Below are positions 17,298 through 62,497 of a stretch of 64,000 bases of DNA, piece after piece (the first letter of the stretch is position 1; the number at the start of each line of letters is the position of its first letter). Origin of the DNA: Leucoraja ocellata (Eukaryota); assembly GCA_036785375.1 (NCBI GenBank), contig JAWMAR010001270.1:62001-126000 (forward strand), written 5' to 3'. The position numbers and the translations under genes are program-made. The notes under the pieces were generated by a model that was not told the origin of the DNA, did not search any database, and saw only the letters and a program-made list of their open reading frames with translations.

Positions 17298-17516
17298 AAC
17301 ATAGAAACATAGAAACATAGAAATTAGGTGCAGGAGTAGGCCATTCGGCCCTTCGAGCCTGCACCGCCATTTAATATGATCATGGCTGATCATCCAACTC
17401 AGTATCCCGTACCTGCCTTCTCTCCATACCCTCTGATCCCCTTGGCCACAAGGGCCACATCTAACTCCCTTAAATATAGCCAACGAACTGGCCTCAACTA
17501 CCCACTGTGGCAGAGA
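17298..17516 (-). mobile_element. CR1 family A 3' fragment inserted in the G2 C1 exon
   Basis: (CATAGAAA)n tail; GTTTA duplicated at 17293-17297 and 17517-17521. Confidence 0.9.
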
Positions 17517-17708
17517 GTTTACACCTGCTTGGTATATCATGTTTCCCTTGAGGTGCCAGCAGCTCTCAGCTACACCGTCAAAAAAGGTAAGATTGTAATT
17601 ACTTGCAGACAAGAGCGGGTGTATATGTCCAACCTGGTTAGAATTTAAATATACAGCTGCTCAAACACGGGGACAATGGCTAGATACGACCCGTGTTTAT
17701 TCGTAATG

Positions 17709-18281
17709 GTGAGACCAAATCTGGAGTATGGTGTACAATTTTGGTCGCCCAATTATAGGAAGGATGTCAACAAAATAGAGAGAGTACAGAGGAGATTTAC
17801 TAGAATGTTGCCTGGGTTTCAACAACTAAGTTACAGAGATAGGTTGAATAAGTTAGGTCTTTATTCTCTGGAGCGCAGAAGGTTAAGGGGGGACTTGATA
17901 GAGGTCTTTAAAATGATGAGAGGGATAGACAGAGTTGTTGTGGACAAGCTTTTCCCTTTGAGAATAGGGAAGATTCAAACAAGAGGACATGACTTCAGAA
18001 TTAAGGGACAGAAGTTTAGGGGTAATATGAGGGGGAACTTCTTTACGCAGAGAGTGGTGGCGGTGTGGAATGAGCTCCCAGTGGAAGTGGTGGAGGCAGG
18101 TTTATTGGTATCATTTAAAAATAAATTGGATAGGCATATGGATGAGAAGGGAATGGAGGGTTATGGTATGAGTGCAGGCAGGTGGGACTAAGGGGCAAAA
18201 AAAAATTGTTCGGCATGGACTTGTAGGGCCGAGATGGCCTGTTTCCGTGCTGTAATTGTTATATGGTTATATGGTTATATG
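17709..18281 (+). mobile_element. CR1 family B 3' fragment (ATATGGTT tail), copy A only
   Basis: TSD GTAATG at 17703-17708 and 18282-18287; empty site at ~33617-33622. Confidence 0.9.
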
Positions 18282-21200: not shown

Positions 21201-21639
21201 TAATTTATTTCAAAATCAAGTATCCACAAGATTGACCAGGACAATTATCTGCAAAGTCTCTTCGCTAAGTACTATTCCTAATGACCACAGGGAATCGATT
21301 TCCCACAGTTTAGTAGCGAAGCATAAACCTCCGCATAAACCTACCAGATCTCCCATTACTAAACACTTTAACATCCCCATCAGAGTGGGGCTCAGTGCAA
21401 ATTGGAGGAAGAGCACCGACTATTTCGCTTGGGAAGCTTCCCCTACAGCGGTATGAATATTGACCTCCAACTTCAAGTAACCCAACTCTCAACCAATACT
21501 AATATTGGTGGCCAGTGGGGGGGGGGGGGGGGCTTTCTGGAGCGCTAGTATGGTGTTGTGGGCTGAAGGGACTGGTTTCCAGAGGGCTAGTATGGACACA
21601 GTGGACCGAATGGATTCTTGGGCTGGCGGCTCAGTCACA

Positions 21640-22711
21640 CATGCCTGTTGTGCTGGCAGCTCACTCACTCACGGCTGGTGGGCTGGCAGTTGACTCACTG
21701 CTATTCCTTGAAATTCCATTTCAAGCAGGGTGCAAGGCCATCAAATTCAAGTGCAGTTTCATACCATTTCAAGCAGGGTGCAAGGCCACTAAAGACAGCA
21801 GTCGTCACCTCTCCTACATCTTGCAGAGACTGAGCCACGCCCACACTTCTGGGTTTTATAGTCCCTCCCACCCCCCTCCCACCAGAAGGGGCGGGGCCTT
21901 CATGGCGTAATTAACAGGAGAGAGAATATGAACATTTTTTAAAACACTAATAATAACTCTTTTATTTTTCATCGATGGGAAAAATCCTCGGCACCTGATT
22001 CGTGGAGGGGTACTCTGAGTAAGATGTCCAAAGATCACAGCCGTACATGGTAGCGTTGTTTCTAAAATCAATACAAAGCGTAAACGGGAAGTGGTCAAGA
22101 TTAGACATTTATTATATAGAAGGCAAGGCAATTTTAATTGGGCAAGGCAACTTTAATTAGGCAAGGCAACTTTAATTAGGCAAGGCAGCTTTAATTAGAC
22201 AAGGCAACTTTAATTATGCAACTTTAATCAGGCAAGGCAACTTTAATTATGCAACTTTAATTAGGCAAGGCAACTTTAATTAGGCCACACAGCTTTAGCA
22301 TTTCCAAACCAAAGGCAGCACAGATTTAGCATTTCCAAACTATATTTTCAAACCACATTAAGGGCACTGACAGGTCAGTAAAACCACTCACAGTTTAGTA
22401 GACATGTGTTCAGTGTTATTTACAGCTCAGATTGAGACATTACCCTCTCGCGCCCCCATCTTGCAGAGACTGACTGAGGCACTCAACACTTCCGGGTTTT
22501 ATAGTCCCTTCAGGAGAGAGAATCTCAACATTTTAAAAACACTAATAACTCTTTTATTTTTAATCATGGGAAAAATCCTCTTGCCCTGCGCAGCGGAAGG
22601 GGACGGGGACTCTAAGTAAGATGGCCAAAAATCACAGCCATCAGTGGCAGTGTTTTTTCTAAAAATCAATATATAGAACGTGGTCAAGATCAGACTTTTA
22701 ATAATATAGAT
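21640..22711 (-). mobile_element. Putative composite non-autonomous Helitron-like element with an internal 19-bp minisatellite (AGGCAAGGCAACTTTAATT)n at ~22121-22285; duplicate at ~37770-38780
   Basis: Two related modules, each starting TCTATA on the minus strand (22710 and 22120). The 3' CTAG end was not clearly found. Confidence 0.45.
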
Positions 22712-24690
22712 ATATGTGTGTGTGTAAATGTATGTTTTATATACACACACTGGACTCTTTTGCCGTTTATTGTATTGCTCACAGTGTACTATCTTTACAT
22801 ATTCTGTTGTGCTGCTGGAATAAAGAATGTCGTTGTTCTATCTGGGACATATGACAATAAAACGCTCTTGACGTGTTTTCTTCTGAGACTGGCCGCCTAG
22901 CTGAAGAATTGGAAATTACGAGAAGCACGGATAGTGTTTTCGTCGGAACCTATGAAAGATAGGAAGGTATTGTTTTAACATCTAAGGTGTAGAGTTATGC
23001 TGGGCCAGGTTTTGACGCAGAAAGTGCCTAGAACGCATTACCAGGGATGCTGGAAGAAGAGAAGACAGCAGTTTTTAAAGAGTCTTTTCGATAGGCATAT
23101 AAATATGTACAAAGGAACTGCAAATGCTGGTTTAAACCGAAGATAGACACAAAAAGCTTGAGAACAGCGGGACAGGCAGCATCTCTGGAGAGATGGAATG
23201 GGTGACGTTTCGCGTCGAGACCCTTCTTCAGAAATATTGCAGGCATGGTGGGATGTGGATCATATGCAGATAGAGGAGATTAGTTTATCTTCGCATCATG
23301 TTCCGCGTAGACATACTAGTCCGAGAGACCCATTGCAGTGTTTAACTGTTGTATGTTTTATAATCTATTTGCTTTCGGAGACCTGAGTTCGATTCTCACT
23401 ACTTCATCTGCGAATTATAAATGATTATTTAAATTATTTTTTTTATATGCGTATACGCCGTCCTTGCTCTGCTCTTTTTTAGATGCCTCTTATTTGTTTC
23501 ATCAGGACGAAGCGTATGCCCTTCCGAATCAGATATCTTTTGGACTTCTGCTTGTAATTAGCAAACACGAATGTGTCCTTGCGAGCTTCTGCAACGTTTC
23601 TAAAAAAAAGATGCATCGAAACTAAGTTTTTTTCCATCGTCTACTGACTAACTAATCATCTACTGACTAACTAACTGACCACTGCATTTCTAGCTTGACA
23701 AAATAGAAATAACACACAGCATGAAAATAGAACTGTTCTCGTGAGTCTGCTGGCGACGTCATGGAAAGGCTTGCGGTCGAATGCTGTGCTTATCTGAAAC
23801 AAACAAGTCACGGACGGCTCGCGTTATCATCTTAGAAACTAAAGTGTAGAACAAGAAGTTTAATTTAAGACCATTGCTTAAAAGTCCACTTCCGTAAATG
23901 AAACATTTCTAAGGTTGTACTGTAATCTTCATTATTTCGCAGGAAGACACAAAATGCTGGAGTAACACAGTGGGACAGGCAGCATCACTGGAGAGAAGGA
24001 ATGGGAGACGTTTCGGGTTGAAACCCTTCTTTCCTTTATTGTTCTTTCCCTAATTATTTCGTGTTCGTTCTGGGAAAAAAATAAATACGTGGTAAACTTC
24101 ATCATGGCAATTAAATGGCTGATTTTTAAATATAACCATATAATATAACTATATAACAAGTACAGCACGGAAACAGGCCATCTCGGCCCTTCTAGTCCGT
24201 GCCGAACACTTACTCTCACCTAGTCCCATCTACCTGCACTCAGAACATACCCCTCCATTCATTTCCGTCCATATACCTGTTCCATCATTCTTGCCTGCTT
24301 GGAGTCCCGGGTATTTAATATGGTTGACGCGTTGTCACTTTTGCTCAGAAGAGCAGAGACGTGTGGTGCCTCTCCGGCATAGAGGAGCTGAAATATATCC
24401 GTGAGGGTTACTGGTGAGACTACCCCTGTGCACTTGACCTATGTGGGTGCGCTTAGTTCGTATTCCATACAACATTTGACAAGTTGTGATGATTCTATTG
24501 ATAATAAGAAGATATCGCCTGTAATTAGAGGCAACTTGCTGGCATTAACTATAAAGTTCATAGACTTTAGGGGCCGCTCGAATGGATAAGGAGAATGCAG
24601 ATGGACTGGCAATATGTCGCAATTGATGACCGTCGGAGATATGCATTTAGTGCATTTACATCTTCAGTCTGCATCTAAATTCCAGTTTTG

Positions 24691-24990
24691 TTTAATTTAG
24701 TTTAGAGATGCAGCGCGAAAACTGGCCCTTCGGCCCATCGGGTCCGCGCCGATAAGCGATCAACGCATATTAACACTATCCTACCCACGCTGGGGACATT
24801 TTTTACATTTACCAAGCCATTTACCTACATGCCTGCACGTCTTTGGAGTGTGGGAAGAAACCGGAGAAAGAAAGCCCACGCGGTCACGGGGAGAACGTAC
24901 AAACCCCGTACAGACAGTCCCCGTAGTCGGGATCGAACCCGGGTCCCCGGCGCTGCAAGTGCTGTTAGGCAGCAACTCTACCGCTGCGAT
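24691..24990 (-). mobile_element. tRNA-derived SINE (HE1/V-SINE-like); further copies at ~28175-28462, ~41418-41716 and ~42695-42988
   Basis: The minus strand has an A-box-like CGCAGCGGTAGAG, B-box GGTTCGATCCC, a CR1-like 3' end and a (CTAAA)n tail. Confidence 0.8.
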
Positions 24991-25514
24991 CACTTGGAAA
25001 CAAAGTTGTGGCAAGATAATTACTGGATAATGCTAGATTGCAGGTACTTTGTAATCTGAAATTAATCACGAAATATTGTGAATTCTAGGTGGTCGAGGAC
25101 AATCTGTGGAGAAAGAGAAACAGTAAATATTTCTATATTATAACAGAAATGATCAACTCGAGACGTTAGTTCTATTTCGCAATCTGACCTGTTGCAGGAT
25201 TCCAGTCAATTCCACCAAACGGTAGAAAACAGTATTTTCTTGTTAATGGCAATCCAACACATCTTGTCGAAAGGAGAATAAAAACGCAATCTAACCAATT
25301 ATTCCCATCAGGCATTGTTAATAATATTTGGAAAACGCATCTGCGATGACGTCATCAACAATGTAAGGGTCTAACGTTATGGAAAACAAAATTATGTTGC
25401 CCAAAGCTTTCCGCGCCTCCTGTTTACTAAATTAATCTAATTTAATGAAACTTTAAAAATATAGGAGCCATCTTGGAACCATTTAATCGAAGTTAAATTA
25501 ATAATGCAAACATG

Positions 25515-27040
25515 TAGTGTAGAAATAGCAGGGGCTATGACAGAAATATTTCAAATGTCATTAGAAACGGGAATAGTGCCGGAGGATTGGCGTACTGCGC
25601 ATGTTGTTCCATTGTTTAAAAAGGGGTCTAAGAGTAAACCTAGCAATTATAGACCTGTTAGTTTGACGTCAGTGGTGGGCAAATTAATGGAAAGAATACT
25701 TAGAGATAATATATATAAGCATCTGGATAAACAGGGTCTGATTAGGAACAGTCAACATGGATTTGTGCCTGGAAGGTCTTGTTTAACTAATCTTCTTGAA
25801 TTTTTTGAAGATGTTACACGGGAAATTGATGAGGGTAACGCAGTGGATGTTGTGTATATGGACTTCAGTAAGGCCTTTGACAAGGTTCCTCATGGAAGGT
25901 TGGTTAAGAAGGTTCAATGGTTGGGTATTAATGGTGGAGTAGCAAGATGCATTCAACAGTGGCTGAATGGGAGATGCCAGAGAGTAATGGTGGATGGTTG
26001 TTTGTCAGGTTGGAGGCCAGTGACGAGTGGGGTGCCACAGGGATCTGTGTTGGGTCCACTGTTGTTTGTCATGTACATCAATGATCTGGATGATGGTGTG
26101 GTAAATTGGATTAGTAAGTATGCAGATGATACTAAGATAGGTGGGGTTGCGGGTAATGAAGTAGAGTTTCAAAGTCTACAGAGAGATTTATGCCAGTTGG
26201 AAGAGTGGGCTGAAAGATGGCAGATGGAGTTTAATGCTGATAAGTGTGAGGTGCTACATCTTGGCAGGACAAATCAAAATAGGACGTACATGGTAAATGG
26301 TAGGGAATTGAAGAATGTAGGTGAACAGAGGGATCTGGGAATAACTGTGCACAGTTCCCTGAAAGTGGAATCTCATGTAGATAGGGTGGTAAAGAAAACT
26401 TTTGGTGTGCTGGCCTTTATAAATCAGAGCATTGAGTATAGAAGTTGGGATGTAATGTTAAAATTGTACAAGGCATTGGTGAGGCCAATTCTGGAGCATG
26501 GTGTACAATTTTGGTCGCCTAATTATAGGAAGGATGTCAACAAAATAGAGAGAGTACAGAGGATATTTACTAGAATGTTGCCTGGGTTTCAGCAACTAAG
26601 TTACAGAGAAAGGTTGAACAAGTTAGGGCTTTATTCTTTGGAGCGCAGAAGGTTAAGGGGGGACTTGATAGAGGTTTTTTAAATGATGAGAGGGATAGAC
26701 AGAGTTGACGTGGAAAAGCTTTTCCCACTGAGAGTAGGGAAGATTCAAACAAGGGGACATGACATGGGAATTAAGGGACTGAAGTTTAGGGGTAACATGA
26801 GGGGGAACTTCTTTACTCAGAGAGTGGTAGCTGTGTGGAATGAGCTTCCAGTGAAGGTGGTGGAGGCAGGTTCGTTTTTATCATTTAAAAATAAATTGGA
26901 TAGTTATATGGATGGGAAGGGAATGGAGGGTTATGGTCTGAGCGCAGGTATATGGGACTAGGGGAGATTATGTGTTCGGCACGGACTAGAAGGGTCGAGA
27001 TGCCCTGTTTCCGTGCTGTAATTGTTATATGGTTATATGG
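25515..27040 (+). mobile_element. CR1 family B, 5'-truncated RT (single nonsense TAA at 26680-26682)
   Basis: YADD, GVPQGSVLGP and ATATGGTT tail; absent from copy B. Confidence 0.95.
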
Positions 27041-27045
27041 TAATG

Positions 27046-27735
27046 ATTGAAGGTAGGCATACAGGTGCAGCAGGCAGTAAAGAAAGCGAATGGTATGTTG
27101 GCTTTCGTAGCAAAAGGATTTGAGTATAGGAGCAGGGAGGTTCTACTGCAGTTGTACAGGGTCTTGGTGATACCACACCTGGAGTATTGCGTACAGTTTT
27201 GGTCTCCAAATCTGAGGAAGGACATTATTGTCATAGAGGGAGTGCAGAGAAGGTTCACCAGACTGATTCCTGGGATGTCAGGACTGTCTTATGAAGAAAG
27301 ACTGGATAGACTTGGTTTATACTCTCTAGAATTTAGGAGATTGAGAGGGGATCTTATAGAAACTTACAAAATTCTTAAGGGGTTGGACAGGATAGATGCA
27401 GGAAGCTTGTTCCCGATGTTGGGGAAGTCCAGGACAAGGGGTCACAGCTTAAGGATAAGGGAGAAATCATTTAAAACCGAGATGAGGAGAACTTTTTTCA
27501 CACAGAGAGTGGTGAATCTCTGGTACTCTCTGCCACAGAGGGTAGTTGAGGCCAGTCCATTGGCTATATTTAAGAGGGAGTTAGATGTGGCCCTTGTGGC
27601 CAAGGGGATCAGAGGGTATGGAGAGAAGGCAGGTACGGGATACTGAGTTGGATGATCAGCCATGATCATATTGAATGGCGGTGCATGCTCGAAGGGCCGA
27701 ATGGCACCTAATTTCTATGTTTCTATGTTTCTATG
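27046..27735 (+). mobile_element. CR1 family A 3' fragment directly behind the family B copy
   Basis: Near-identical to 9751-10450; TTTCTATG tail. Confidence 0.95.
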
Positions 27736-29636
27736 ATCTTTTTCAGTATTCGCTTGCGGTGTCACAATATACTTTTCTATTAAACAATGGGAATATACCG
27801 ATGCATTTCCTCAAAATGTGGCAAATAAAATTCTTCAAATCCATTTTGTAAGATTATTATTGGTCCATTGTTGCAGAACAGCCCTTCGCTGACAGTAGCT
27901 TGCAAACATGCACAGAAATCCTTAATTTGTCAGATTTGCCGTGTACTGAGGTTTTCTCGAACTGCCGCTGGTTTCTTTACACTGCTGTCTTCACTAAAAA
28001 AGAAACAACGTGCCGCTTTAAATCTGAGTCCAGTCTTCATTATCTTCAAGACCAGCATCACAAACCGGAATGTTCTTGTTGCAGCTCTTCGTTTGAACGG
28101 TTAATGTGGACAGACTTAAAACCCGAAATTACGCAATCTTTACATGGAAGTTCAAATAGAAGCAGTTTTTTTAGCAATAGTTTAGAGATACAGCGCGGAA
28201 ACAGGCCCTTCGAGTCCGCGCCGACCAGCGATCACCCCGTACATTAGCACTATCCTGCACGCTAGGGACAATTTACAATCTTTACCGAAGCCAATCAACC
28301 TACGAACATGTACGTCTTTGGAATGTGGGCGGAAACCGGAGCGCCCAGAGAAAGCCCAAGCCAGTCATGGGACGAACGTACAAACTCCATACAGACAGCA
28401 CCCGCAGTCGGGATCGAACCCAGGTCTCTGGCGCTGTAAGTGCAGCAACTCTACTACTGCGATACGGTCCTGCCCGATTTCAGTAATTTAAAAAATATCC
28501 AGAGAATTACTGTGTATATTTGGAATATTGTGCCCTTCCATTGAACGGCACAAGGTCTCTAAATGAGGCGCATCAAACATTTAAATTACACGAAAATTAC
28601 TTAACCATTTGGTCTACAACAGGTTTCTGCTCGTGCAATTTAATGTGTGTTCTGAAGCCAAAATCATTGATTTGGGCAGAGGGATGTGAGTATAACCACG
28701 ATACGGGGAAAACATAAAGAGTTCAAACCGCCTCGCTCACCACTTTGGCTTCTTGCCTGTAGTCCAAACTTTAAGTGATCCTTAATTTCTACGATTTCTT
28801 GAAACAATACTTTGGAGGAAATTATAAGATTAACAGTTTGGTTTAAATCTCCCTAATTTATATTGGCCCATTCGATTAATTTACAGCCCCTATTCTCCTG
28901 TGTTGTGTGGATGTCAACAGCATAAGTTGATTGCTCTACTGGGCATTATCGGAAGAAAAAACATAGATTTCATTCATACGTTAGCTGTCGCGGCTTGGCG
29001 CCAATCTTCTGCTGGACTCCCCATAGAATATTGCTGCAATTGTGTTTATGAAAATAGTAGAAATATTAGTTAACAAAAACCAGCATGGAGATTTGGTTTT
29101 GTAGGAATAGCAACCGGAGTTAGTGATAAAGCGTCAGATGGAAACATAATCAATAGAAAGCTGCGGATGGCGATGGTGAGGGCTGAACAGGAAGAAACGA
29201 AAAGGGTGATTGTTGTTTGAATGTATATAATCGAAAGAGCGAAGGAGCACAACACACATTGGGAAGGGGGGGGGGGGGGGAGAGATTCAAGGGAAGGTGG
29301 GTGTCTACGTTTGTGCATCTAAATATTCACAAGCACTCCTTACCTTCTACGCGGAAACGATTTGTGACAATTAACTGAGTAGGCAGCTGATGCAAATTTA
29401 ATTCCGAGTAAAAATGTGGATGCTACGGGAGGAAGTTGTGAACATGTTTCAGGAAGTATTGGAAGGCTTTGTTACAATGGGAATGGGCCGAACTATGACC
29501 TCTCCCGCCGCACGAGCCACAGTCGTGGGATATATATTACGTCACGGTCACGTTTCATATATTTACTCATAATTTCCTTTTCCGCAGAGCAAGTTTTGAG
29601 TAAACTAACAACAAGTTGGCAATTTATTCTTGTAAT

Positions 29637-32600
29637 ATGTCGGTGAAAGTTAGAGTTTGGTCCATGGCTCTTCTGGTCATACTAACGCAGGGTATAGTTA
29701 AAATGTGTGCCATTTCTGGTCTAAGTATTATTTTACGAAAATTCGAGCTATTAGGTTCATCTATTTGGCCCTCGTGGGTTTATAGTTGTTTCGTGCTTTT
29801 CGACAGTTGGTTCCTGTTTTCTCTGTCCAGTGTTTACAAATGTTTCAATTGTTCTTGCATTTTTCCCGACAGCTACCGAAGTCTATCCGACCAGAGTGTC
29901 CCAATTCCCTGTCAACTTGGACGTTGGCGGCGGTGAACACGCTATCATGTATTGCAAATTTCCAATATCGAAAGGCGATATTGGCGTTAATTGGTGGAGG
30001 GACGGCATGAAGACATTCCTTGAACCGGACAGTAGAAAACAATTTACCATAGATTCTGGAAGCGGAACATTTACTTTCCAACATGTGCGTGTAGCTGACT
30101 CCGGCCTGTATTACTGTCAAGTAAAGTTCCAGCAGAAGGTTATCGGAAATGGAAGTGGCAGCCTGATCACCGTATTTGGTGAGTGTGTGTGTTAGGGAAA
30201 TAAGCAAGTTTCAGTTCTATGTCATTTGTAAAGTCTAGTCGGGAGGACAATGTGAAAAATCGCCTGTTGATAAATATCCAGTAATAACAATTTTAAATTA
30301 CAGGGACCAGTAATTCAAAATAAAACAAAGCACAATGGACATAACCAGCAGGTCGAGTCGCACTTGTGGGACGCGTGGGTATTGAGGGTTATTCTGTTCA
30401 TTGTACGATACTTTGCGAGACTCCTTTTCATTGCCGCTATGAATGGGCGCAGCCCATTCATTTAGCGGTCCCGAATTTTAAGCCAATCTCCCAGATGGAT
30501 TTATCGCTAAGAACGGGTAAATGCTGAGATGGAAGGAATTAATTCTGAGGTGTGGTTAGAAATGTTTTGCAATGAGATATTGAAATAATATTCCTGTTAG
30601 TTTGAGTGGTTGGAGTGTGATGTCCAGGTTTCTCATCACTAAGAAAAGAGAGTAGGAGCAATTTTAATACGTCGATGGTAGAGTCTGTCATGCCTCTATT
30701 CTACATCGACAGCTTTAGAACCTCATAAGACCAATGTGCTGCTGCAACCCAAGGACCTTGGTCTTCCAACATGTGGGACTCATCGCTGCTGATTCCAAGC
30801 TGACTTCAATGAAATCTTTTTTCTTTTTTTTGACATCGCTTGACACTAATTTTGTCAGGCATAACCTCAGTCTATTCAACCAATTTGGCAACGTACGGGG
30901 GGAAAAAAGAAGTAAACAACATCTCAAATGAAATTATTTAAAGTCCGGGAATAAACAGTAACATTTATTTCATCATTAAAGATTATCCTGATTAAGTGAA
31001 TTAAGTCAAGCTTTCTAAAGATTTGTAATAAACGGACAATGCAACCCAACAATCAACTCTCCGTCCAGTTAGACACCGGCTGCAGCTCGTACGGAAGGAG
31101 TTCGCGTTAATAAATGCCAAATATAGGGCCTTTTACGTGCAGACCTAAATGAGTAGAATCTGCACAGCGGGAAACAGAGCTTGTTATTTTCCATCGTTTG
31201 GCTTCTGCAAGCTATCATCATTAACGCCGATCTAACGTTGTCGATTCACTGCCGCCAAGTTGGCACAACAGATGGAACTGATTTGTATAGAGACACAAAA
31301 TGCTGGAGTAACTCAGCGGGGCAGGCAGCATCTCTGGGTAGAAGGAATGAGTGACGTTTGGGGTCGATACCCTTCTTCAAACCTCGATCCGAAACGTCAC
31401 CCATTCCTTCTCCGAAGAGATGTTGCCTGTCCCGCTGAGTTACTGCAACATATATTCGGTTTAAACCAGCATCTGCAGTTCTTTCCTACATACTGATATT
31501 GAATAAGTGCGCTCGTAAATTGCTTGTAATAGAAACCACGGTGTTTCACTATAAGCATTCAATGCGCGAGAAAGGTGTTCCAGCACTTGGTTCACATGCA
31601 GGTAAATGGTTGTGATCGGCATTTCAAACCCATATCTGGTTCTGGTTCTGGTTGATTACTGCGCAAACACGTGATAAGTGGTTATCTCCCGCATGTCGGA
31701 GTGAGTAGAGTAGAGTAGTGATTAAATGTTGAAGTGGGTGTTTTTGACCAGGGTGAGAAGATTTAATCCATATACTACTTAAAGTGCTAACGGGATTCAT
31801 CATTAATCTTCATGTATAACCGCTTCCTGTCACCACACTATACGAATCTGTTATATTTCGATTATGATGGCTCCATTTCTTTTGCAACATATGAATGATC
31901 CGAACATGGCCACTTTTAAATAATCACGGCAGGCTTCTGGCAAAAGCTTTCGCGCGATACCGGGGAACGTCCATTCAGAACAGAGTTTATTTTGGAACTC
32001 CTTAAATTCTGTTGGCACTCCTTAAATTCACCCTCTTTGTATGTTGGCGGAGTTCGTCCGGGTGTCCGCTAGGAAAGGGAGTATAAATGAACGACAAACT
32101 GGGAAGTTTAAATATTAAATAATTTGGTCTTGCCAAATACGACTCGGTGGCGAGATAAAATGTAAATATTTACAATGAAATGGAAAGCGAACACCCGATA
32201 TTTTTTTTTCTTTGCTTAAGATCCCCCAACTCCCTTGACAATTGTTCCTGCTGAAGGACATGGCTCTCCACGGAAACTTGTGTGCAAAACTGACGCCTTT
32301 TATCCGGAGAAATTAGAAATATTCTGGCTAAGAAATAACGAGGAAATTCGCACTGGAATCGAAACTGTGAAAAATCAGAGCGAAGAAGGATTGTTTGTGG
32401 CTACTAGTTCTTTGGAAATAACGCAGCCTGGGGAGGGCAAAGATATTTACACCTGTCTGGTATCACATGTCTCCCTGAAGGTGGCGGCCAGTTTCAGTTA
32501 TACCCTGGGCCAAGGTAAGACTGGAGCCAGTTACACATGATATTGGGGCGGTAGATCAAATTCGATCAGATTAATAACTGGACAGCTTTCCGTACACGGA

Positions 32601-35258
32601 GCGAAAGGTAAATGTGGCTCGCATTTGTTCGCATGAAAGCAACACTTGTATGCTGTATAAAATGAATTGCAGTCCATCAGTTCTTGTAAGGAAATCCGTG
32701 TGAGATGAATTGACAAACTGAATTGATATAGTGTTTGTAATGAGCAAAAACGTCCTGGGATATGCGGTATTCCGCTGTCTGGTGAAATATATGAAGATAA
32801 AACCTAAATTCCGTTTAACGTTAGTAAGCAGCTTTCCACACATGGGCACAATACAACGGCAATTGTTTGTCCTGTGGATTCCATTACTAACTTCCACCTG
32901 GTGCCGCATGATATACCTTCCAAACTTTCCGATGTGGGTATTAAAATGCACCTACGAAATGATTTACCTTCTTGACTGCCGTTTGTATATTTGTTCTGAA
33001 ATGTATAAATTCTTTACAGTTTCTTAATTTTCAGTTGCTTCATCAGGAATTGATCGCAAACAGATTATCGTATATGCAGTAGGTGGATCAGTACTTTTAA
33101 TTCTGATTATAATCGTGATAAGACTCAGTTTAAAGATGTGGCCCGGTAAGAATCTTGATAATTTACAATAATCATTTCTATGGTTAAAAACAGCATGGAT
33201 ATGTCAATGGTGTTTGCTCAAAGAGATTTCTGAAGCCGGTTTTGATATATGTCTGTGATAATATATGATGGATCTTCAAATTCAATTATATCAGCTTGGA
33301 ATTGGATTATTCAATTATCACCTTTGCATATATTTTCAAATATAAGGAATTATTCAAACATCCAGTGTGATGGATAATGAGTGCAATGGAAGATTACGAT
33401 TTTGAAGAAAAAACAACTGTGGTTTTCTGTGGCAATGAACAAAACCAATCATCTCCTTATTTTTACATTACATTGCTGTTTTGACATGGACACAATTCCT
33501 TATAAACCATCACAATGTTAAAGTTTCAGTTAAGATTTAGGTCCAGTGGGCGCAACATCACGAAAGGGTACATAGGAACATAGAAAATAGGTGCAGGAGT
33601 AGGCCCGTGTTTATTCGTAATGAGAGAACAATGTTTCAAAATCACAAATCAATCATGGAGCAAGAAGCTCAAAGGCTAATAAACCATTGAGGTGTTCTGT
33701 GATATCGCTAAATTCCTAAATGTTTATAAATTTCTATATATTATATCATTCACGTTTTTCCTGTTTCTCTCTTGATCCATAAGTTGCAGATAAAAACCTA
33801 ATTATCGGATGCGCAGTGGGTGTGTTGGCAGTTTTAGTTTTGGTCATTATCTTGATAAGACTCCAAGTAAAGGCACAAAATGGTGAGAATTATACATATT
33901 TTACACTATTCTCGGTATTAATCATAATGGTGGTTAAAAAACCAAGGGCAGTAAATGCTATTCGATTGCAAAACAATAAAATAATTGAGAATAAAGCTGA
34001 CCATTAACAATGACAAAAATAAAACTTAAGATATAAATCTTACATCTTCCCATGTCAATGAATGTTTCAATCGTCGTAGATTTTTGTTGTCTCCATCGGT
34101 TACTGAATTCACCGAAATTCGGTAGTGGTGCCGAAGCCGAGGGATATTAAGCAGAGTGCAGTGATAACACTTTCAATCTACCAAGTTTGGAATGGGGTCA
34201 AGGAAAGAGCGTTCACGCCCGGCCCTGCTTTCACCAATCTTTCCACCACTACGCACTTGAAGCACAAGAACAGACACCATTGTATGCAGATGCCGAGGCG
34301 TGTGTTCAGCTCTGGTTGAACAACTTCTAATCTTGTGTGTGGTCTCGATAAGAAGAGTACGCAATGTTGGATGATTTCAGCCCAAGGACAATATGAACAA
34401 CTCTTATTTCCTAGCGACCGTTGATTTCCTGACAATTGTGCAGGCAGGTTCAACGTAGAATTTGCCCCATGGGAATATAGGTTAAATTGTCTATCAGCGA
34501 ATCTTAAAATTGTACTTTGCATTATCAGCATATTTAATACGTAATATTAAATGTTTGCTACTTTAAATCTACTATTCGTCTGCCCCCTTAAGCAGATTCC
34601 ATTTACGTTCATACAAATGATCGGCAATAACGAAGAAAGCTAATGTTGTTCTGTGGGCCAGGAATGATTAGTAGCACCGAAGGTCAACACTAAGTGAAAT
34701 CAGGGAAAGAAAATTAATGAAGAATGGCCAAAAAATATCTGATAACAGTATCCAATTGGCAGATCACTGGAAGATCGCTAACTCAACCAAACAAAACTAA
34801 AACACAGAATAATCCATCCCAGCAGTAGCGCGCAATACAGTTTTAGAATAAACTACTGTTTTCTCAACTCATTAGAAGCAGTTCCCCAACTTGCAGTAAA
34901 GCACTTTTAATCCCGTGCCCGTGTATCATTAAAGGTGACGGATAGCAATTCCATATTTGTTTGCACGTCGGTGCAGTCTCATGGATTAGTATGAATCCTG
35001 AAGTGTATATACATTCTCTATGAGACTGGTAGTATTTTGTTTCAAAATCGTATTCTTTGTGCCACCAGAGGGTAATTGACTAATGGCCGATATAAATTAC
35101 TTTCACAGACTAAAGATGATAGATTCTACGTTATATCATGTCGATTTGCAGTTACTCAACTCCAATCAGCAGTAACATTTAACCAGAAAGAGGAACATGT
35201 ACCTTATGCAGATGGAAATGTTTTAAAGAAGGAGCGAAGCTGGAAATCGAAGCTGTAG
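29637..35258 (+). CDS. G3: chimeric VJ-C1 receptor: L 29637-29691, V 29873-30178, C1 32221-32514, TM-a 33047-33145, TM-b 33784-33882 (G2-derived), G2-derived terminal exon 35109-35258; probably tailless
   Basis: L, V, C1 and both TM exons are open with canonical splice sites. Sequence after 33604 is a copy of the G2 3' half. The actual 3' splicing is uncertain. Confidence 0.75.
29873..30178 (+). CDS. G3 V-J Ig exon
   Basis: MYC...VNWW...DSGLYYC...IGNGSGSLITVF; cgacag| and G|gtgagt; 306 nt. Confidence 0.95.
32221..32514 (+). CDS. G3 C1 exon
   Basis: LVCKTDAFYPEKLEIFW...YTCLVSHVSL; ttaag| and G|gtaaga. Confidence 0.95.
33047..33145 (+). CDS. G3 TM-a exon GIDRKQIIVYAVGGSVLLILIIIVIRLSLKMWP
   Basis: 99 nt, phase 1-1; paralog of 47521-47619. 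Confidence 0.85.
33784..33882 (+). CDS. G3 TM-b exon VADKNLIIGCAVGVLAVLVLVIILIRLQVKAQN (duplicate of G2 TM)
   Basis: 99 nt, ataag| and G|gtgaga; near-identical to 18398-18496. Confidence 0.75.
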
Positions 35259-38200
35259 ACTGTGAATAATTGCAGGCGGAAATATTGCTACTTTCTGATC
35301 ATTGCAGCCAAGCTAATGAACTCCCATGGTAACAATCGTGGGAGCTGCAGGTCGTTTTCACCTGCATTGAGGCAATGTTTTGGTGTAAGTGACTATCATC
35401 TAACAAGCATCCAACGCTTCCATTTCTGAAAGCAGGGATGAAAGTGCCAGTTTGCATTTGTTGTAAATTTTAAAAATCGTGTTTGTTTATTTTACTTCTG
35501 TTCTCAAATGTGATTAATTTCGCTGGAGCTTTGTGAAGAAACTATGGCCACGTCCGTTCGTGATAACATGTCACTTAATGATGTCTGATTTAAAAAAACC
35601 CGCCGATTATTCAGTTGTGCAACCAATATATTTTCCCTTCATTAAATTCCATGCTTTTTCAATGCACCTGAGCCTTTGTCCTCTCATTTGTTTCGAAATG
35701 CACTAACGTCAACACAAACCAGAGAAGGAAATCCGAAGAAACCCATCAACCAATCAAGTGCACTACCATTGAATACACTTGTAATGAAATGGAATTAGTC
35801 AGTCACGTGATGATAGCCTGGCGGAGCAAAGCGCCTCAGTGACGTCAGTGGCATAGCCACCTACAGTGGAACAGAAGATGTAAGTTCTGCACGGATGGAT
35901 CCCGTCTTCCATTTGCCCAGACATTACTGTTGGTAACTTCATATGTTCCACGTAAAAAGCAAAGCAAATCAGTACGTGCATCAGCATGTAGTGACTGGAA
36001 GCACCAGCAGACCTTGGCGGACTGAGCGCTCGTGTTCTGAGATACCCCCCCCCCCCCCCCCACCACCCCCCCCCCCCCCCAACCCCACCCGGAGACACAC
36101 ACACAGACACACACACACACACAGACGCGCGCATACACACACACCCTTCCCTTTTTACATATACAACCGCCGCCTTCTCGACATGACAATTTCACCCATC
36201 ATCTGCATCCACCTATCACTGGATCGGTTTCGTCCCACCCCAGGTATCTTCCAGCTTAATCCACATTATTCTGAAGAAGGGTTCTAATCTGACACGTCGT
36301 CTGTCCATTCCCTCCGCAGATGCTGCATCGCCTGCTGAGTTCCTCCACCGCTTTGCTGTTTTTCTCAAGATCCCAGCAATGGCAGTCTCAAATATCTTAA
36401 TGTGTAGTAACCGTCCATGCAGCTCCCTGCGGACTGTGTTCTGGATGCTGAAACAGTGCGCCCACTTGTCACTGTATTCATCCTGTACGTCCCATTATGA
36501 AATCAATCAGCAAAATAGATGGAAAACTAATGTCATTTAATCAAATACGATTGATTCGTATTGGATGAATTATGATTTTCAACAGATCCTGATAATTAAT
36601 TACGAAAAATATATGGTGTCACAAGAGACTGAAGGCGCTGGAATCTTGAACTGCAAGAAATCAGCAGGCAGGCAAAATCTGTTGAGGCAAATGGAGAGAT
36701 GACCTTGCGGATTGGATCCCGTCTTCAGACTGACCTTCAGAAATGTATGTCACTTGGTCACTTACATAGGCAGATTTCTGTTTACATTAAATCCATTGTG
36801 CTGTATTCAACTAAAGGTGTGAATTAAATCGTCCACACTGGGTGGTGTGGCAACTTACTAATATCAAGACTGTGCACAAATTGCAAACGGTTTATGATTC
36901 TTTCCACTGATGCACCTATGACTTAGTGAAATAATGTGAATGCCAGAGTGTGCCAAGGGCCATATGTATAATCTTGCTCTTGGGATGATGTAGCAATTTA
37001 TTCGTGTTTGCCTATCCCTTCTCGCTTCTCAATAGCGTGATTTCCCCTTATCTGAAATTATAATCTACTGCTCTTGTGAATAGTTTAATAACATTAACTC
37101 TTGTGAATGAGTTTAACTTGTCAGAAGGTCATAAGTGATAGGAATAGAATTAGGCCATTCGTCCCATCAAGTCTACTCCGCCATTCAATCATGGGTGATC
37201 TATCTCTCCCTCCTAACTCCACTCTCCTGTCATCTCCCCATAACCCCTGACACCTGAATTTCCATGAACTTGTGCCACCGACTCAAGCAGCGGGCCGCAC
37301 CTGCAAATCTGGATAATTTATTTCAAAATCAACTATCCACAAGATTGACCAGGCCAATTAACTGCAAATTCTCTTCGCTAGGTACTATTCCTAATGACCA
37401 CAGGAAATCGATTTCCCACAGTTTAGGAGCGAAGCATAAACCTCCACATAAACCTACCAGATCTCCCATTACTAAACACTTTAACACCCCCATCAGCGTG
37501 GGGCTCAGTGCAAATTGGAGGAAGAGCACCGACTATTTCGCTTGGGAAGCTTACCCCACAGCGGTATGAATATTGACCTCCAACTTCAAGTAACCCACCA
37601 CTCAACAAATACCAATATTGGTGGCCAATGGGGTGGGGGGCTTTCTGGAGCGCTAGTATGGTGTTGTGGTCTGAAGGGACTGGTTTCCAGAGGGCTAGTA
37701 TGGACATAGTGGACCGAATGGATTCTTGGGCTGGCGGCTTGGTCACACATGCCTGTTGTGCTGGCAGCTCACTCACTCACGGCTGGTGGGCTGGCAGTTG
37801 ACTCACTGCTATTCCTTGAAATTCCATTTCAAGCAGGGTGCAAGGCCACCAAATTCAAGTGCAGTTTCATACCATTTCAAGCAGGGTGCAAGGCCACTAA
37901 AGACAGCAGTCGTGACCTCTCCCTCCTCCATCTTGCAGAGACTGAGCCACGCCCACACTTCTGGGTTTTATAGTCCCTCCCACCCCCCTCCCACCAGAAG
38001 GGGCGTCGCCTTCATGGCGTGATTAACAGGCGAGAGAATATCAACATTTTTTTAAACACTAATAATAACTCTTTTATTTTTCATTAATGGGAAAAATCCT
38101 CGGCACCTGATTAGTGGAGGGGTACTCTGAGTAAGATGTCCAAAAATCACAGCCGTACGTGGTAGCATTGTTTCTAAAATCAATACAAAGCGTAAACGGG

Positions 38201-40214
38201 AAGTGGTCAAGATTAGACTTTTATTATATAGAAGGCAAGGCAACTTTAATTAGGCAAGGCAACTTTAATTAGGCAAGGCAGCTTTAATTAGACAAGGTAA
38301 CTTTAATTATGCAACTTTAATTAGGCAAGGCAACTTTAATTAGGCAACACGGCTTTAGCATTTCCAACCCAAAGGCAGCACAGATTTAGCATTTCCAAAC
38401 TATATTTTCAAACCACATTAAGGGCACTGCCAGGTCAGTAAAATCACTCACAGTTTAGTAGACATGTTTTCAGTTTTATTTACAGTTCAGATTGAGAGAC
38501 ATTACCCACTCGCTCCCCCATCTTGCAGAGACTGACTGAGGCACTCAACACTTCCGGGTTTCATAGTCCCTTCAGGAGAGAGAATCTCAACATTTTTAAA
38601 ACACTAATAACTCCTTTATTTTTAATCGATGGGAAAAATCCTCTTGTCCTGCGCAGCGGAAGGGGACTCTAAGTAAGATGGCCAAAAATCACAGCCATCA
38701 GTGGCAGCGTTTTTTTTCTAAAAATCAATATACAGAACAACAGGAAGTGGTCAAGATCAGACTTTTAGTAATATAGATATATGTGTGTGTGTAAATGTAT
38801 GTTATATATACACACTGGACTTTTTTTTCCCGTTTATAGTTTTGCTCACAGTGTACTATGTTTACATATTCTGTTGTGCTGCTGCAAATAAGAATGCCGT
38901 AGTTCTATCTGTGACATATGACAATAAAACGCTCCGCTTGATTTCTTATGAGACTGGCCACCTAGCTGAAGAATTGGAAATTACGAGAGGCACGGATAGT
39001 GTTGTTCGTCAGAACCTATGAAAGATAGGAAGGTATTGCTTTAACGTCAGAGTTTGAGTGTTATCGGCCAGTTTTTGACGCGGAAAGGGCCTGGAACGCG
39101 TTACCACGGGTGCTGGAAGAAGATAAGACAGCAGTTTTTGAAGGGTCTTTTCAATAGGCATATAAATATGTACAAAGGAACTGCAGATGCTGCTTTAAAT
39201 CTAAGATAGACACACAAAGCTTGAGAACTCAGCGGGACAGGCAGCATCTCTGGAGAAATGGAATGGGTGACGTTTCGCGTCGAGACCCTTCTTCAGAAAT
39301 AAGGCATGGTGGGATGTGGATCATATGCAAATAGAGGAGATTAGTTTATCTTCGCATCATGTTCCGCGTAGACATACTAGTCCGAGAGACCCGTTGCAGT
39401 GTTTAACTGTTGTATGTGTTATGATCTATTTGCTTTCGGAGACGAAAGCAAATAGCGGCAAATAGCGTTCGATTCTCACTACTTCAACTGCGAATTATAA
39501 ATCTGCATATTTAAATTAAATTATGTATATGCGTATACGCAGTCCTTGTTATGCGCTTTTTAGATGCCTCTTATTTGTTCCATTGGGACGAAGCGTTATG
39601 CCCTCCGAATCAGATTTAATTTTAGACTTCTGCTTGTAATTCGCAAACACGAATGTGTCCATGCGAGCTTCTGCAACGTTTCTATAAAAAAGATGGAACG
39701 GAACTAAGTTTTTTCCATCGTCTACTGACTAACTAATCATCTACTGACTAACTAACTGACCACTGCATTTCTAGCTTGACAAAATAGAAATAACACACAG
39801 CATGAGAATAGAACTGTTCTCGCGAGTCTGCTGGCGACGTCATGGAAAGGCTTGCGGTCGAATGCTGTGCCTATCTGAAACAAACAAGTCACCGACAGCT
39901 CGCGTTATCACCTTGGAAACTTAAGTGTAGAACAAGAAGTTTAATTTAAGACCATTTCTTAAAAGTCTGCCTCCGGCAATGATACATTTCTAAGGTTGTA
40001 CTGTAATCTTCATTATTTGGCAGGAAGGCACACAATGCTGGAGTAACACAGCGGGACAGGCAGCATCACTGGAGAGAAGGAATGGGTGACCTTTCGGGTT
40101 GAGACCCTTCTTTCCTTTATTGGTCTTTCCTTAATTATTTCGTGTTCGTTCTGGGGAAAAAATAAATACGAGGTAAACTTCTTCGTGGCAATTAAATGGC
40201 TGATTTTTAAATGT

Positions 40215-40648
40215 AACTATATAATATAACCATATAACAATTTACAGCACGGAAACAGGCCATCTCGGCCCTTCTAGTCCGTGCCGAACACTTACTCTCA
40301 CCTAGTCCCATCTACCTGCACTCAGACCATAACCCTCCATTCCTTTGCCGTCCATATACCTATCCAATTTATTTTTAAATGATAAAATCGAACCTGCCTC
40401 CACCACTTCCACTGGAAGCTCATTCCACACAGCTACCACTCTCTGAGTAAAGAAGTTCCCCCTCATGTTACCCCTAAACCTTTGTCCCTTAATTCTCAAA
40501 TCATGTCCTCTTGTTTGAATCTTCGCTACTCTCAATGGGAAAAGCTTATCTACGTCAACTCTGTCTATCCCTCTCATAATTTTAAAGACCTATCAAGTCC
40601 CCCCCTTAACCTTCTGCGCTCCAAAGAATAAAGAGCAATCTTGTTCAA
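40215..40648 (-). mobile_element. CR1 family B 3' fragment (shortened counterpart at 24131-24278)
   Basis: ORF 40302-40577(-) matches the family B C-terminus. Confidence 0.9.
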
Positions 40649-40753
40649 TGTTACCCTTTCTCTGAGAGCATGGGACGATGTGCCATTACCTGACGCATTA
40701 TAAGTCAAGATGAAACGAAATGATTCAAAAATATTATCTGTTTCATCATTCTT

Positions 40754-41013
40754 TACTCAGAGAGTGGTAGCTGTGTGGTCTTTACTCAGAGAGTGATAGC
40801 TGTGTGGAATGAGCTTCCAGTGAAGGTGGTGGAGGCAGGTTCGTTTTTATCATTTAAAAATAAATTGGATAGTTATATGGATGGGAAGGGAATGGAGGGT
40901 TATGGTCTGAGCGCAGGTATATGGGACTAGGGGAGATTTTGTGTTCGGCACGGACTAGAAGGGTCGAGATGGCCTGTTTCCGTGCTGTAATTGTTATATG
41001 GTTATATGGTTAT
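40754..41013 (+). mobile_element. CR1 family B 3' fragment, copy B only
   Basis: TSD ATTCTT at 40748-40753 and 41014-41019; 29-bp tandem duplication at its 5' end. Confidence 0.9.
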
Positions 41014-44000
41014 ATTCTTGACTGCTTGGAGTCCCGGGTATTTCATATGGTTGACGCGTTGTCACTTTTGCTCAGAAGAGCAGAGACGTGTGGTGCCTCT
41101 CCGGCATAGAGGAGCTGAAATATATCCATGAGGATTACTGGAAAGACTACCCCTGTGCACTTGACCTATGTGGGTGCGCTTAGTACGTACTCCATACAAC
41201 ATTTGACAAGTTGTGATGATTGTATTTACAAAAAGAAGATATCGCCTGTAATTAGAGGCAACTTGCTGGCAATAACTATAAAGTTCATAGACTTTAGGGG
41301 GCGCTCGAATGGATAAGGATAATGCAGATTGATTGGCATAATGTCGCAATTGATGACCTTCGGGGATATGCGTTTAATGCATTTACATTTTCAGTCTACA
41401 TCTAAATTCCAGTTTTGTTTAATTTAGTTTAGAGATGCAGCACGAAAACTGGCCCTTCGGCCCACCGGGTCCGCGCCGATAAGCGATCACCGCATATTAA
41501 CACTATCCTACCCACGCTAGGGACATGTTTTACATTTACCAAGCCATTTACCTACATGCCTGCACGTCTTTGGAGTGTGGGAAGAAACCGGAGAAAGAAA
41601 GCCCACGCGGTCACGGGGAGAACGTACAAACCCCGTACAGACAGTCCCCGTAGTCGGGATCGAACCCGGGTCCCCGGCGCTGCAAGTGCTGTTAGGCAGC
41701 AACTCTACCGCTGCGATCACTTGGAAAAGTTCTGGCAAGATAATTACTGGATAATGCTAGATTGCAGATACTTTGAAATCTGAAATTAATCACGAAATAT
41801 TGTGAATTCTAGGTCGTCGAGGACAATCTGTGGAGAAAGAGAAACAGTACATATTTCTATATTATCACAGAAATGATCAACTCGAGACGTTAGTTCTATT
41901 TCGCAATCTGACCTGTTGCAGGATTCCAGTCAATTCCACCAAACGGGAGAAAACAGTATTTTCTTGTTAATGGCAATCCATCACATCTTGTCGAAAGGAG
42001 AATAAAAACGCAATCTAAACAATTATTCCCATCAGACATTGTTAATAATATTTGGAAAACGCATCTGCGATGAGGTCATCAACAATGTAAGGGTCTAACG
42101 TTATGGAAAGCAAAATTATGTTGCCCAAAGCTTTCCGCGCCTGCTGTTTACTAAATGAATCCAATTTAATGAAACTTTAAAAATATAGGAGCCATCTTGG
42201 AAAAATTTAATCGAAGTTAAATTAATAATGCAAACATGATCTTTTTCAGTATTCGCTTGCGGTATCACAATATTTTTTTCTATTAAACAATGGGAATATA
42301 CCGATGCATTTCCTCAAAATGTGACAAATAAAATGTCTTCAAATCCATTTTGTAAGATTATTATTGGCCCATTATTGCAGAACAGCCCATCGCTGACAGT
42401 AGCTTGTAAACATGCACAGAAATCCTTAATTTGTCAGATTTGCCGTGTACTGAGGTTTTCTCGAACTGCCGCTGGTTTCTTTACACTGCTGTCTTCACTA
42501 AACAAGAAACAACGTGCCGCTTTAAATCTGAGTCCAGTCTTCATTATCTTCAAGACCAGCATCACAAACCGGAATGTTCTTGTTGCAGCTCTTCGTTTGA
42601 ACGGTTAATGTGGACAGACTTAAAACCCGAACATTACGCAATCTTTACATGGAAGTTCAAATAGAAGCCATTTACAGAAACAGTTTTTTTAGCAATAGTT
42701 TAGAGATACAGCGCGGAAACAGGCCCTTCGACCCACAGAGTCCGCGCCGACCAGCGATCACCCCGTACATTAGCACTATCCTGCACGCTAGGGACAATTT
42801 ACAATCTTTACCGAAGCCAATCAACCTACGAACATGTACGTCTTTGGAATGTGGGCGGAAACCGGAGCGCCCAGAGAAAACCCAAGCCAGTCACGGGACG
42901 AACGCACAGACTCCATACAGACAGCACCCGCAGTCGGGATCGAACCCAGGTCTCTGGCGCTGTAAGTGCAGCAACTTTACCGCTGCGATACGGTCCTGCC
43001 CGATTTCAGTAATTTAAAAAATATCCAGAGAATTACTGTGTATATTTGGAATATTATGTCCTTCCATTGAACGGCACAAGGTATCTAAGTGAGGCGCATC
43101 AAACATTTAAATTACACGAAAATTTCTTAACCATTTGGTCTACAACAGGTTTCCGCTCGTGCAATTTATTGTGTGTTCTGAAGCCAAAATCATTGATTTG
43201 TGCAGAGGAATGTGAGTATAACCAAGATACGGGGAAAACATAAAGAGTTCAAACCGCCTCGCTCACAACGTTGGCTTCTTGCCTGTAGTCCAAACTTTAA
43301 GTAATCCTTCATTTCTACGATTTTTAAAACAATACTTTGGAGGAAATTATAAGATTAACAGTTTGGTTTAAATCTCCCTAATTTATATTGGCCCATTCGA
43401 TTAATTTACAGCCCCTATTCTCCTGTGTTGTGTGGATGTCAACAGCATAAGTTGATTGCTCTACTGGGCATTATCGGAAGAAAAAACATAGATTTCATTC
43501 ATACGTTAGCTGTCGCGGCTTGGCGCCAATTTTCTGCTGGACTCCCCATAGAATATTGCTGCAATGGTGTTTATGTAAATAGTAGAAATATTAGTTAACA
43601 AAAACCAGCATGGAGATTTGGTTTTGTAGGAATAGCAACCGGAGTTAGTGTTAAAAACGTCAGATGGAAACATAATCAATAGAAAGCTGCGGATGGCGAT
43701 GGTGAGGGCTGAACAGGAAGAGACGAAAAGGGTGATTGTTGCTTGAATGTATATAATCGAAAGAGCGAAAGAGCACAACACACATTGGGAAGGGGGGGAG
43801 ATTCAAGGGAAGGTGGGTGTCTACGTTTGTGCATCTAAATATTCACAAGCACTCCTTACCTTCTACGCGGAACGATTTGTGACAATTAACTGAGTAGGCA
43901 GCTGATGCATATTTAATTCCGAGTAAAAATCTCGATGCTACGGGAGGAGGTTGTGAACACGTTTCAGGAAGTATTGGAAAGCTTTGTTACAATGGGAATG

Positions 44001-44149
44001 GGCCGAACTATGACCTCTCCCGCCGCACGAGCCACAGTCGTGGGATATATTACGTCACGGTCACGTTTCATATATTTACTCATAATTTCCTTTTCCGCAG
44101 AGCAAGTTTTGAGTAAACTAACAACAAGTTGGCAATTTATTCTTGTAAC

Positions 44150-60421: not shown

Positions 60422-60475
60422 GTAAGCCGGGAGGCATTTAACGTAGACTTCAGCCTGCCGAGAAATACAATCCGA

Positions 60476-62395: not shown

Positions 62396-62497
62396 AAACC
62401 ACTGACAAAACACAAATTATTGGATGTGTAGTGGGCGGACTAGTAATTGTGATTCTGATCATATTTTTCACAAGATTCGGATTAAAGGCGCAACCGG
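62396..62497 (+). CDS. G5 TM-a exon ETTDKTQIIGCVVGGLVIVILIIFFTRFGLKAQP (alternative acceptor at 62390)
   Basis: Hydrophobic, family-like sequence; donor G|gtaaga. Confidence 0.85.

Follow-up and report, generated by a model that had tools for sequence, protein, structure and literature searches.

Paired inhibitory and non-inhibitory receptors are central to the tuning of vertebrate immunity, and the step that makes the disarmed partner is rarely visible. Among the described cases, SIRPs have three immunoglobulin (Ig) domains in the order V-C1-C1, and their genes lie in synteny with NSFL1C and PDYN, at 20p13 in human. SIRPgamma and SIRPalpha have near-identical ectodomains with a VJ-type V domain, one member carries tyrosine motifs and the other none, and SIRPgamma gives 'no signal' and binds CD47 about 10-fold more weakly (PMC3533184). 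Here we describe an arrangement of this general kind in a 64,000-nucleotide stretch of DNA, the window (positions 62001-126000 of contig JAWMAR010001270.1, below C1270, in an assembly of 3.44 Gb), which holds five Ig-superfamily genes or remnants, G1 to G5, all on one strand. One of them, G3, is of chimeric origin and has lost the canonical tyrosine motifs at the DNA level; with a probability of about 0.47, we read it as a tailless, non-signalling membrane partner of copies that bear immunoreceptor tyrosine-based inhibitory motifs (ITIMs), such as G4. In this array, from the oldest jawed-vertebrate lineage, the sequence shows where the break occurred, which pseudogene was the donor, how the hybrid was copied later and how ectodomains were exchanged, and G3 and G4 present a directly testable case, one V with the tail present or absent, in which the function of G3 is putative.

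An initial annotation of this DNA had likened G3 and G4 to SIRPgamma and SIRPalpha, a comparison that we keep as an analogy only. G3 lost its tail by a graft of another paralogue's transmembrane (TM) and terminal exons, and has two TM exons. Other systems share other traits. In KLRC/NKG2, KLRI, Ly49 and PIR, ectodomain exons are exchanged across signalling types and the signalling end keeps its identity (PMC3210942), as happens here, but the partners there are activating and have a charged TM residue, and G3 has none. The chicken BG genes likewise form a tandem, same-strand Ig-superfamily array with 5'/3' hybrids and copy numbers that differ between haplotypes; their hybrids are explained by unequal crossing-over or deletion between homologous genes (PMC4046983), whereas the junction in G3 is non-homologous, is marked by a repeat, and lies in a gene with two tandem TM exons. 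Siglec-5/14 is a further paired-receptor case (PMC8615218). Hybrid genes, tailless partners and homogenised ectodomains are, in themselves, established themes.

Anatomy of G3 and the duplication junction

The features of G3, of the pseudogene G2 that donated its 3' module, and of G4 are given below in window coordinates; TMa and TMb are the two TM exons of G3, and T2 is its terminal exon.

29637-29691, +: leader exon (L), identical in sequence to that of G4
29873-30178, +: V exon, VJ-type and unsplit, its G strand containing GNGSG; differs from G4 at 13 of 101 residues
32221-32514, +: C1 exon (PF07654, E 4.5e-13)
33035-33145, +: TMa, the G4-type TM exon, core without a charged residue; identical in all four G3-type copies
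33146-33171, +: read-through of TMa, 8 codons and then a stop, with a 4-nt deletion restricted to the G3-type copies
33570-33605, no strand: duplication junction, a 36-bp dispersed-repeat tail between the G4-type intron 4 and the G2-type intron
33784-33882, +: TMb, the G2-type TM exon, splice sites intact, with three AATAAA within the next 140 nt
34192-34357, no strand: 165-bp copy of a dispersed repeat, inside the intron between TMb and T2 and no tail exon
35109-35258, +: T2, the G2-type terminal exon; a phase-1 splice leads to a stop at 35111-35113, phase 0 is open for 49 codons with both tyrosine motifs lost
35641-35646, +: candidate poly(A) signal ATTAAA, at the same distance in 10 of 10 G2-type modules
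17058-19859, +: G2, pseudogene and donor of the 3' module, with TMb at 18398-18496 and T2 at 19710-19859
44150-44204, 44398-44703, 46695-46988, 47509-47619, 48265-48308, 50913-51023 and 51869-52006, +: exons of G4 (352 aa)

That G3 is a chimera created by duplication, with the leader, V, C1 and TM exons of the G4 type and, 3' of a junction, the TM and terminal exons of G2, had been proposed in the initial annotation, and both halves of the proposal stand; the G4-type exons form an open frame. When the window is compared with itself by BLAST, 27733-33572 matches 42236-48080 at 94% on the G4 side, 33700-36030 plus 36761-42238 match 18314-25514 at 91-96% on the G2 side, and the repeat tail at 33570-33605 joins the two sides. 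Measured segment by segment, the 5' part of G3 mismatches G4 at 2.0-6.9% of positions, and the 3' part, from TMb on, mismatches G2 at 1.3-5.1%. Copy-specific repeat insertions aside, the blocks 18314-33572 and 33700-48080 represent a tandem duplication, about 15 kb long, whose junction G3 straddles. There, G4-type intron 4 continues until 33572 and the G2-type intron begins at about 33604, with an overlap of a few bases on each side, and G3 has the empty site of a repeat that G2 gained later in the same intron. All internal splice sites of G3 are AG/GT and phase 1, and the 1.1 kb upstream of the gene is 97% identical to that of G4.

The lost tail and the predicted products of G3

As had been noted at the outset, G4 carries ITIMs or immunoreceptor tyrosine-based switch motifs (ITSMs), which we scored on in-frame cytoplasmic exons with the pattern [SIVLT]xYxx[ILV]: its four-tyrosine tail contains LTYATV and TVYADV, and both are found on five of five G4-type tails. 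The 352-aa model aligns end to end with the Mobula hypostoma model XP_062923465 (53% over 349 aa), and because this ray RefSeq model matches it along the whole length of the tail with the same exon layout, the comparison supports G4 as an inhibitory-type receptor.

The tail of G3 is different. The terminal exons of G1, of G4, of the G2 type and of a further module, TM5b (see below), start with ACTAAA in phase 0, and therefore a phase-1 TM exon joined directly to any of them reads aspartate followed by a stop. Splicing either TM exon of G3 to the exon at 35109 does read G|AC TAA, as predicted, and the TMa-T2, TMb-T2 and TMa-TMb-T2 products all finish in this manner, at 256, 252 and 289 aa; the inclusion of both TM exons is one of two routes that earlier work on this DNA had not considered, the other being read-through of the TMb donor. 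Read-through of the TMa donor halts about 8 codons on (GKNLDNLQ, stop at 33169-33171), which agrees with the earlier claim and is due to the 4-nt deletion particular to the G3-type copies. The suggestion that a G2-type cytoplasmic exon 1 persists in G3 without its AG/GT was not borne out: a profile built from three paralogous exon-1 regions gave 0 matches in the introns of G3, and pairwise alignments did not rise above shuffles (z = -0.2 to 1.5). A possible remnant lies near 34430-34480, by a weak alignment only, and exon 1 of G3 is missing or unrecognisable.

Single cryptic exons do not restore the motifs either. Between TMb and T2, 0 of 1780 candidates give an ITIM/ITSM-like motif, and after TMa 47 of 436 do so, 0 of those 47 passing a simple splice-site filter. 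Two individual candidates for a tail exon were rejected, 34263-34297 (TPLYADAE), which lies inside the dispersed repeat, and 34596-34640, which has an in-frame stop and no donor. In the ancestral phase, eight of ten T2 copies keep 49 codons open, but T2 has lost both tyrosine motifs, the first under a paired frameshift, while the second now reads VPYADG. Its acceptor, a branch-like CTAAT and the downstream ATTAAA are kept in 10 of 10 G2-type modules. Neither TM core contains arginine or lysine, as an activating receptor would require, and G3 has the makeup expected of a non-signalling partner: an intact ectodomain and TM exon, no tyrosine motif, and no charged TM residue.

The donor of this 3' end is itself broken. 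L and V exons of G2 were found on neither C1270 nor a second array contig, C578, and its C1 is broken on both, in the window by a repeat insertion (17297-17519) together with a frameshift and a stop codon; among the best candidates examined elsewhere in the assembly, 62 matches, there was no intact G2-type C1. Over C1 and TM, its identity is 65-72% with three RefSeq models that have short tails (Pristis, Hemitrygon and Mobula; 243-248 aa) and at most 61% with 17 other database proteins. If those short-tailed ray models are orthologues of G2, the 3' end of G2 would have been tailless before the duplication, and G3 would have given it a new head; tailless mRNAs may long have ended in the G2-type module. 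As to timing, the 'decayed tail' of the earlier account may be wrong, since the nearest relatives of G2 in three other rays are short-tailed too.

Array copies, ectodomain exchange and competing explanations

In the contig segments covered (C1270, 295 kb; C578, 225 kb; and a third contig, C26, 120 kb), 13 genes carry a G3/G4-type ectodomain: five have ITIM/ITSM tails, all intact, four have the G3 junction (two on C1270 and two on C578), and four have another junction, to TM5b. Long blocks of C1270 are 97-99% identical to C578, with unlike copy numbers, and the two contigs look like two haplotypes. Since the four G3-type modules form a single clade next to G2, at 3.4-3.8% from G2 and 0.45-3.4% among themselves, the G3 junction is one event that was copied later. 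The L-V-C1 frames are open in 13 of 13 related genes, and both frames and splice sites are open in all four of the G3 type.

Upstream of the junction, the copies do not sort by tail. In permutation tests, distances in the upstream region (p 0.23), V (p 0.52), intron 2 (p 0.31) and C1 (p 0.11) were unrelated to tail class while those in intron 3 followed it (p 0.0002, 12 genes; the C26 gene, whose TMa and intron values were not used, was left out), and for this reason we conclude that the ectodomain, meaning the upstream region, V and C1, has been exchanged across tail classes. Near-identical V domains on both tail types reproduce a pattern described for paired receptors (PMC3210942). The V variation of the 13 genes is a patchwork: it resolves into a small number of mosaic allele groups and is concentrated at residues 47-56, 82-88 and 105-110. 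The smallest cross-class V difference is 1-3 residues for three of the four G3-type copies and 5 for the fourth: two copies other than G3 are 1 residue from an ITIM-tailed V, in one case that of G4, and the V of G3 itself is 3 residues from an ITIM-tailed copy, B7, against 13 of 101 from the adjacent G4. The description of G3 as a twin of G4 thus holds for the type of ectodomain and is too narrow as to the pairing, which is better seen as lying between tail classes across the array than between two genes.

As the DNA shows, a tandem duplication from the pre-TM intron of G2 to the post-TM intron of G4, with the 36-bp repeat tail at its junction, made the hybrid, which spread to four copies, while its 5' half (upstream region, V and C1) kept exchanging with ITIM-tailed copies. 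G3 would be transcribed from its G4-like upstream region, spliced through TMa, with or without TMb, to T2, and polyadenylated near 35641; nonsense-mediated decay would not be triggered because the stop sits in the last exon. The 256-aa product would then stand at the surface, likely binding the ligands of the ITIM-bearing copies without recruiting phosphatase, and would weaken inhibitory signalling by dilution, as a competitor or an adhesion partner that sends no signal itself. A wider scheme, which we hold to be unlikely, would make the array a modular paired-receptor system of cartilaginous fish, with one pool of exchanged VJ-C1 ectodomains repeatedly grafted onto three interchangeable 3' modules (the inhibitory one; the old batoid tailless one, which outlived its own gene and was re-headed as G3; and a tyrosine-deleted one, activating-like, in some copies with an arginine in the TM), the two-TM genes choosing anchor and signalling mode by splicing.

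Several points count against the tailless, non-signalling role. The transcription, splice choice, surface display and ligand of G3 are inferred from DNA alone; the splice sites of TMa and TMb are equally normal, and a hairpin with two TM segments may thus be what the gene makes by default; and the adjacent G4 and G3, 13 V residues apart, may not share a ligand. Read-through of TMb would give a tail of 21-41 aa with YTYFTL (YxxL) in four of four G3-type copies, with AATAAA signals after it. Conservation tests lean towards constraint on TMa and are not significant (0 of 111 variable sites among G3-type copies vs 2.4% in the flanks; Poisson P 0.07, Fisher P 0.17), and the same copies have pN/pS values of 0.95 (V) and 0.44 (C1), from few and non-independent sites. 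Diversifying selection on V is not supported (pN/pS 0.75 over 78 non-independent pairs), nor does T2 exceed its intron significantly in conservation (Fisher P 0.15). Even with no selection on G3, its ectodomain could stay open through exchange with functional copies. As to the antiquity of the module, the tree that joins G2 with the short-tailed ray models, built without P0158, P0160 and P0165, does so at only 55% bootstrap and its relatives are gene predictions; another tree does not group them (support 38-40). In the main rival explanation, which we judge somewhat unlikely, array turnover left G3 behind as a silent or neutral by-product, a pseudogene-in-waiting that such exchange keeps open and at most a reservoir of V alleles. 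The array does hold debris (a broken G2 on each contig, TMb modules orphaned in four places, a stop in the V of G5), its junctions are non-homologous and repeat-associated, and the selection tests on G3 fall short of significance. What a mere by-product accounts for poorly is that the hybrid was kept and copied to four places with frames and splice sites open in all four, that 1.1 kb of upstream sequence stays 97% identical to that of G4, and that the same ectodomain was grafted a second, independent time onto a tyrosine-free module, in four copies.

It is improbable, in our estimate, that G3 is transcribed mainly into something else, be it the two-TM hairpin (TMa plus TMb, 289 aa), a TMb form that ends at an intronic AATAAA with the YxxL tail, or a secreted V-C1 protein. 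The intact AG/GT sites of TMb, the three AATAAA after it and the YTYFTL read-through shared by all four copies would permit the membrane forms, and a secreted form could come from an alternative acceptor 15 nt upstream of TMa, which reads V-S-stop, or from splicing C1 to T2, which reads D-stop. However, TMa is invariant and TMb variable (0/111 vs 3/99 sites), a weak argument for TMa as the anchor, the length of the read-through tail is not conserved, and YTYFTL falls outside the ITIM/ITSM pattern used. That G3 signals after all, by splicing 15 kb downstream into the tail exons of G4, with the help of an adaptor, or as a heterodimer in which the partner has a tail, is less probable still: the TMa donor is phase-compatible with the G4 exon at 48265-48308, V-C1 proteins often dimerise, and the shark members P0119 and P0179, with a TM arginine and a short tail, do exist, but the TMa and TMb cores are uncharged, an intact terminal exon, a candidate poly(A) signal and G4's own four exons intervene, and the second G3-type copy on each contig precedes a gene without an ITIM tail. 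An assembly artefact from the joining of two haplotypes is scarcely credible. The assembly does hold two versions of the array (C1270 and C578) and part of a third (C26), and under the 31-letter rule the junction is not bridged by any one short-read contig, yet the junction is present four times with copy-specific differences. Furthermore, G3-specific intron 4 (33099-33564) occurs with 0 differences in short-read contigs from runs X1-X3, and such contigs reach both edges of the repeat tail (33537-33597 in X1 and X2, 33578-33658 in X3), although these runs, two samples from one study, are perhaps not independent of the assembly. X1-X3 cover introns and behave as DNA; the presumed-RNA runs X4 and X5 (18 and 14 million letters, one study) touch only repeats and are uninformative on expression.

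Other modules, receptor family and neighbourhood

The second graft, of a G4-type ectodomain and TMa onto the TM5b module, is located as follows.

Window 63705-63806; C1270:29025-30440, and also 125.7k, 166.9k, 191.8k and 233.5k; two on C578: TM5b modules (TM5b and its terminal exon)
C1270:24475, 187234 and 228915; C578, reverse-complement working coordinate 163175: the four copies of the graft

Its junction lies about 80 nt past the TMa donor, inside a repeat, and these copies have no TMa acceptor downstream, the upstream acceptor being in frame and open. In the TM5b terminal exon, deletions take out exactly both tyrosine motifs and the frame stays open; four of seven copies have an arginine near the start of the TM and three a cysteine. 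No cytoplasmic exon 1 was found in the TM5b modules, and direct splicing reads D-stop, so that the module may be activating-like or decaying. Orphan TMb-T2 modules, cut by a repeat 45 nt upstream of the TMb acceptor, stand about 10 kb behind TM5b at C1270:135.9k, 177.1k and 201.2k, with one more on C578. G5 (window 58380-63806) has a stop in the V exon of the window copy, one of five G5-type copies; ectodomains of its type also occur with an ITIM tail (LTYTSL and SMYAGV; C578 and C26) and ahead of two TM exons. G1 (1306-15036) is an intact-looking 320-aa model with a 126-nt TM exon and one 44-nt cytoplasmic exon (7057-7100), and its terminal exon has PTYAAL and PVYADI, off the canonical pattern at the -2 position.

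The closest named relatives of the window genes are ray proteins, at about 50-55% identity, followed by shark and chimaera proteins, and because of this order the host genome is that of a batoid-like cartilaginous fish. The family genes match the V-set and C1-set Pfam domains and have the GNGSG motif, that is, a VJ-type V with GxG and then C1. All 13 mapped genes of the G3/G4 type have one C1 exon, and not the V-C1-C1 of SIRPs. An open reading frame (ORF) domain scan of C578 (120 of 1347 candidate ORFs, in a fragmented assembly) placed the following exons 60-130 kb outside the array.

L075:7702-8115, -: CUE-domain exon, which we take to be AMFR-like
L069:2398-2781 and 7515-7853, -: BBS2 exons

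SEP-domain exons are on C904, C14 and C667, and none was found on the array contigs C26, C578 and C1270, again within a fragmented assembly; a search with opioid peptides for the PDYN side of the SIRP synteny gave weak matches only, all with stops. With a single C1, AMFR-like and BBS2-like neighbours instead of those of SIRP, and SEP-domain genes on other contigs, the family should not be filed as SIRP on the sequence available. It is a family of VJ-C1 receptors in cartilaginous fish, with AMFR/BBS2-like exons next to it. L065, L071, L073 and L079 also contain ORFs of retroelements and of Tc1-type transposases.

The V-C1-TM models XP_062923465 (Mobula hypostoma), XP_051884096 (Pristis) and XP_072926677 (Hemitrygon) are members of the family as well; the long-tailed ray models share 48-53% identity and the tail layout with G4, and G2 is nearest to the short-tailed ones. 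Names of these relatives such as 'tyrosine-protein phosphatase non-receptor type substrate 1-like' and 'NCR3LG1-like' are automatic, and the link to B7-H6 comes from the name only. A search of representative proteins returned mostly multi-Ig giants, and 11 of 150 matches were chosen by length and stretch number; no skate protein model was among the database relatives found, the V-exon search against longer proteins matched 0 of 540 candidates, and Atlas and PDB searches with a family sequence gave generic Ig matches only. In the literature searched we found no description of this receptor family or gene, subscription papers and all supplements, which may bear on novelty, lying outside its scope; PMC7677710 does not mention SIRP or NCR3LG1. 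UrIg/UrIg2, PRARP and NKp30 share the unsplit VJ exon and the GxG motif of the G strand (PMC10751288, PMC11599192, PMC12227049), and on these features the family belongs to the broad VJ-domain group that these papers describe; UrIg/UrIg2 differ in being antibody-like and in lying in the MHC or an antigen-receptor complex.

Among 43 database models of the family, 17 of the 36 that bear a TM lack a canonical tyrosine motif, and some of these are probably truncated predictions, since P0153, a cluster mate of P0113, has a complete tail. The shark members P0119 and P0154 (Scyliorhinus) and P0179 (Heptranchias) combine a TM arginine with a short tail, and so suggest that the family includes partners of the activating type. 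About 22 more distant V exons of related type, at 30-45% identity, lie at C26:7.83-8.50 Mb, C26:11.96-12.08 Mb and C105:6.08 Mb.

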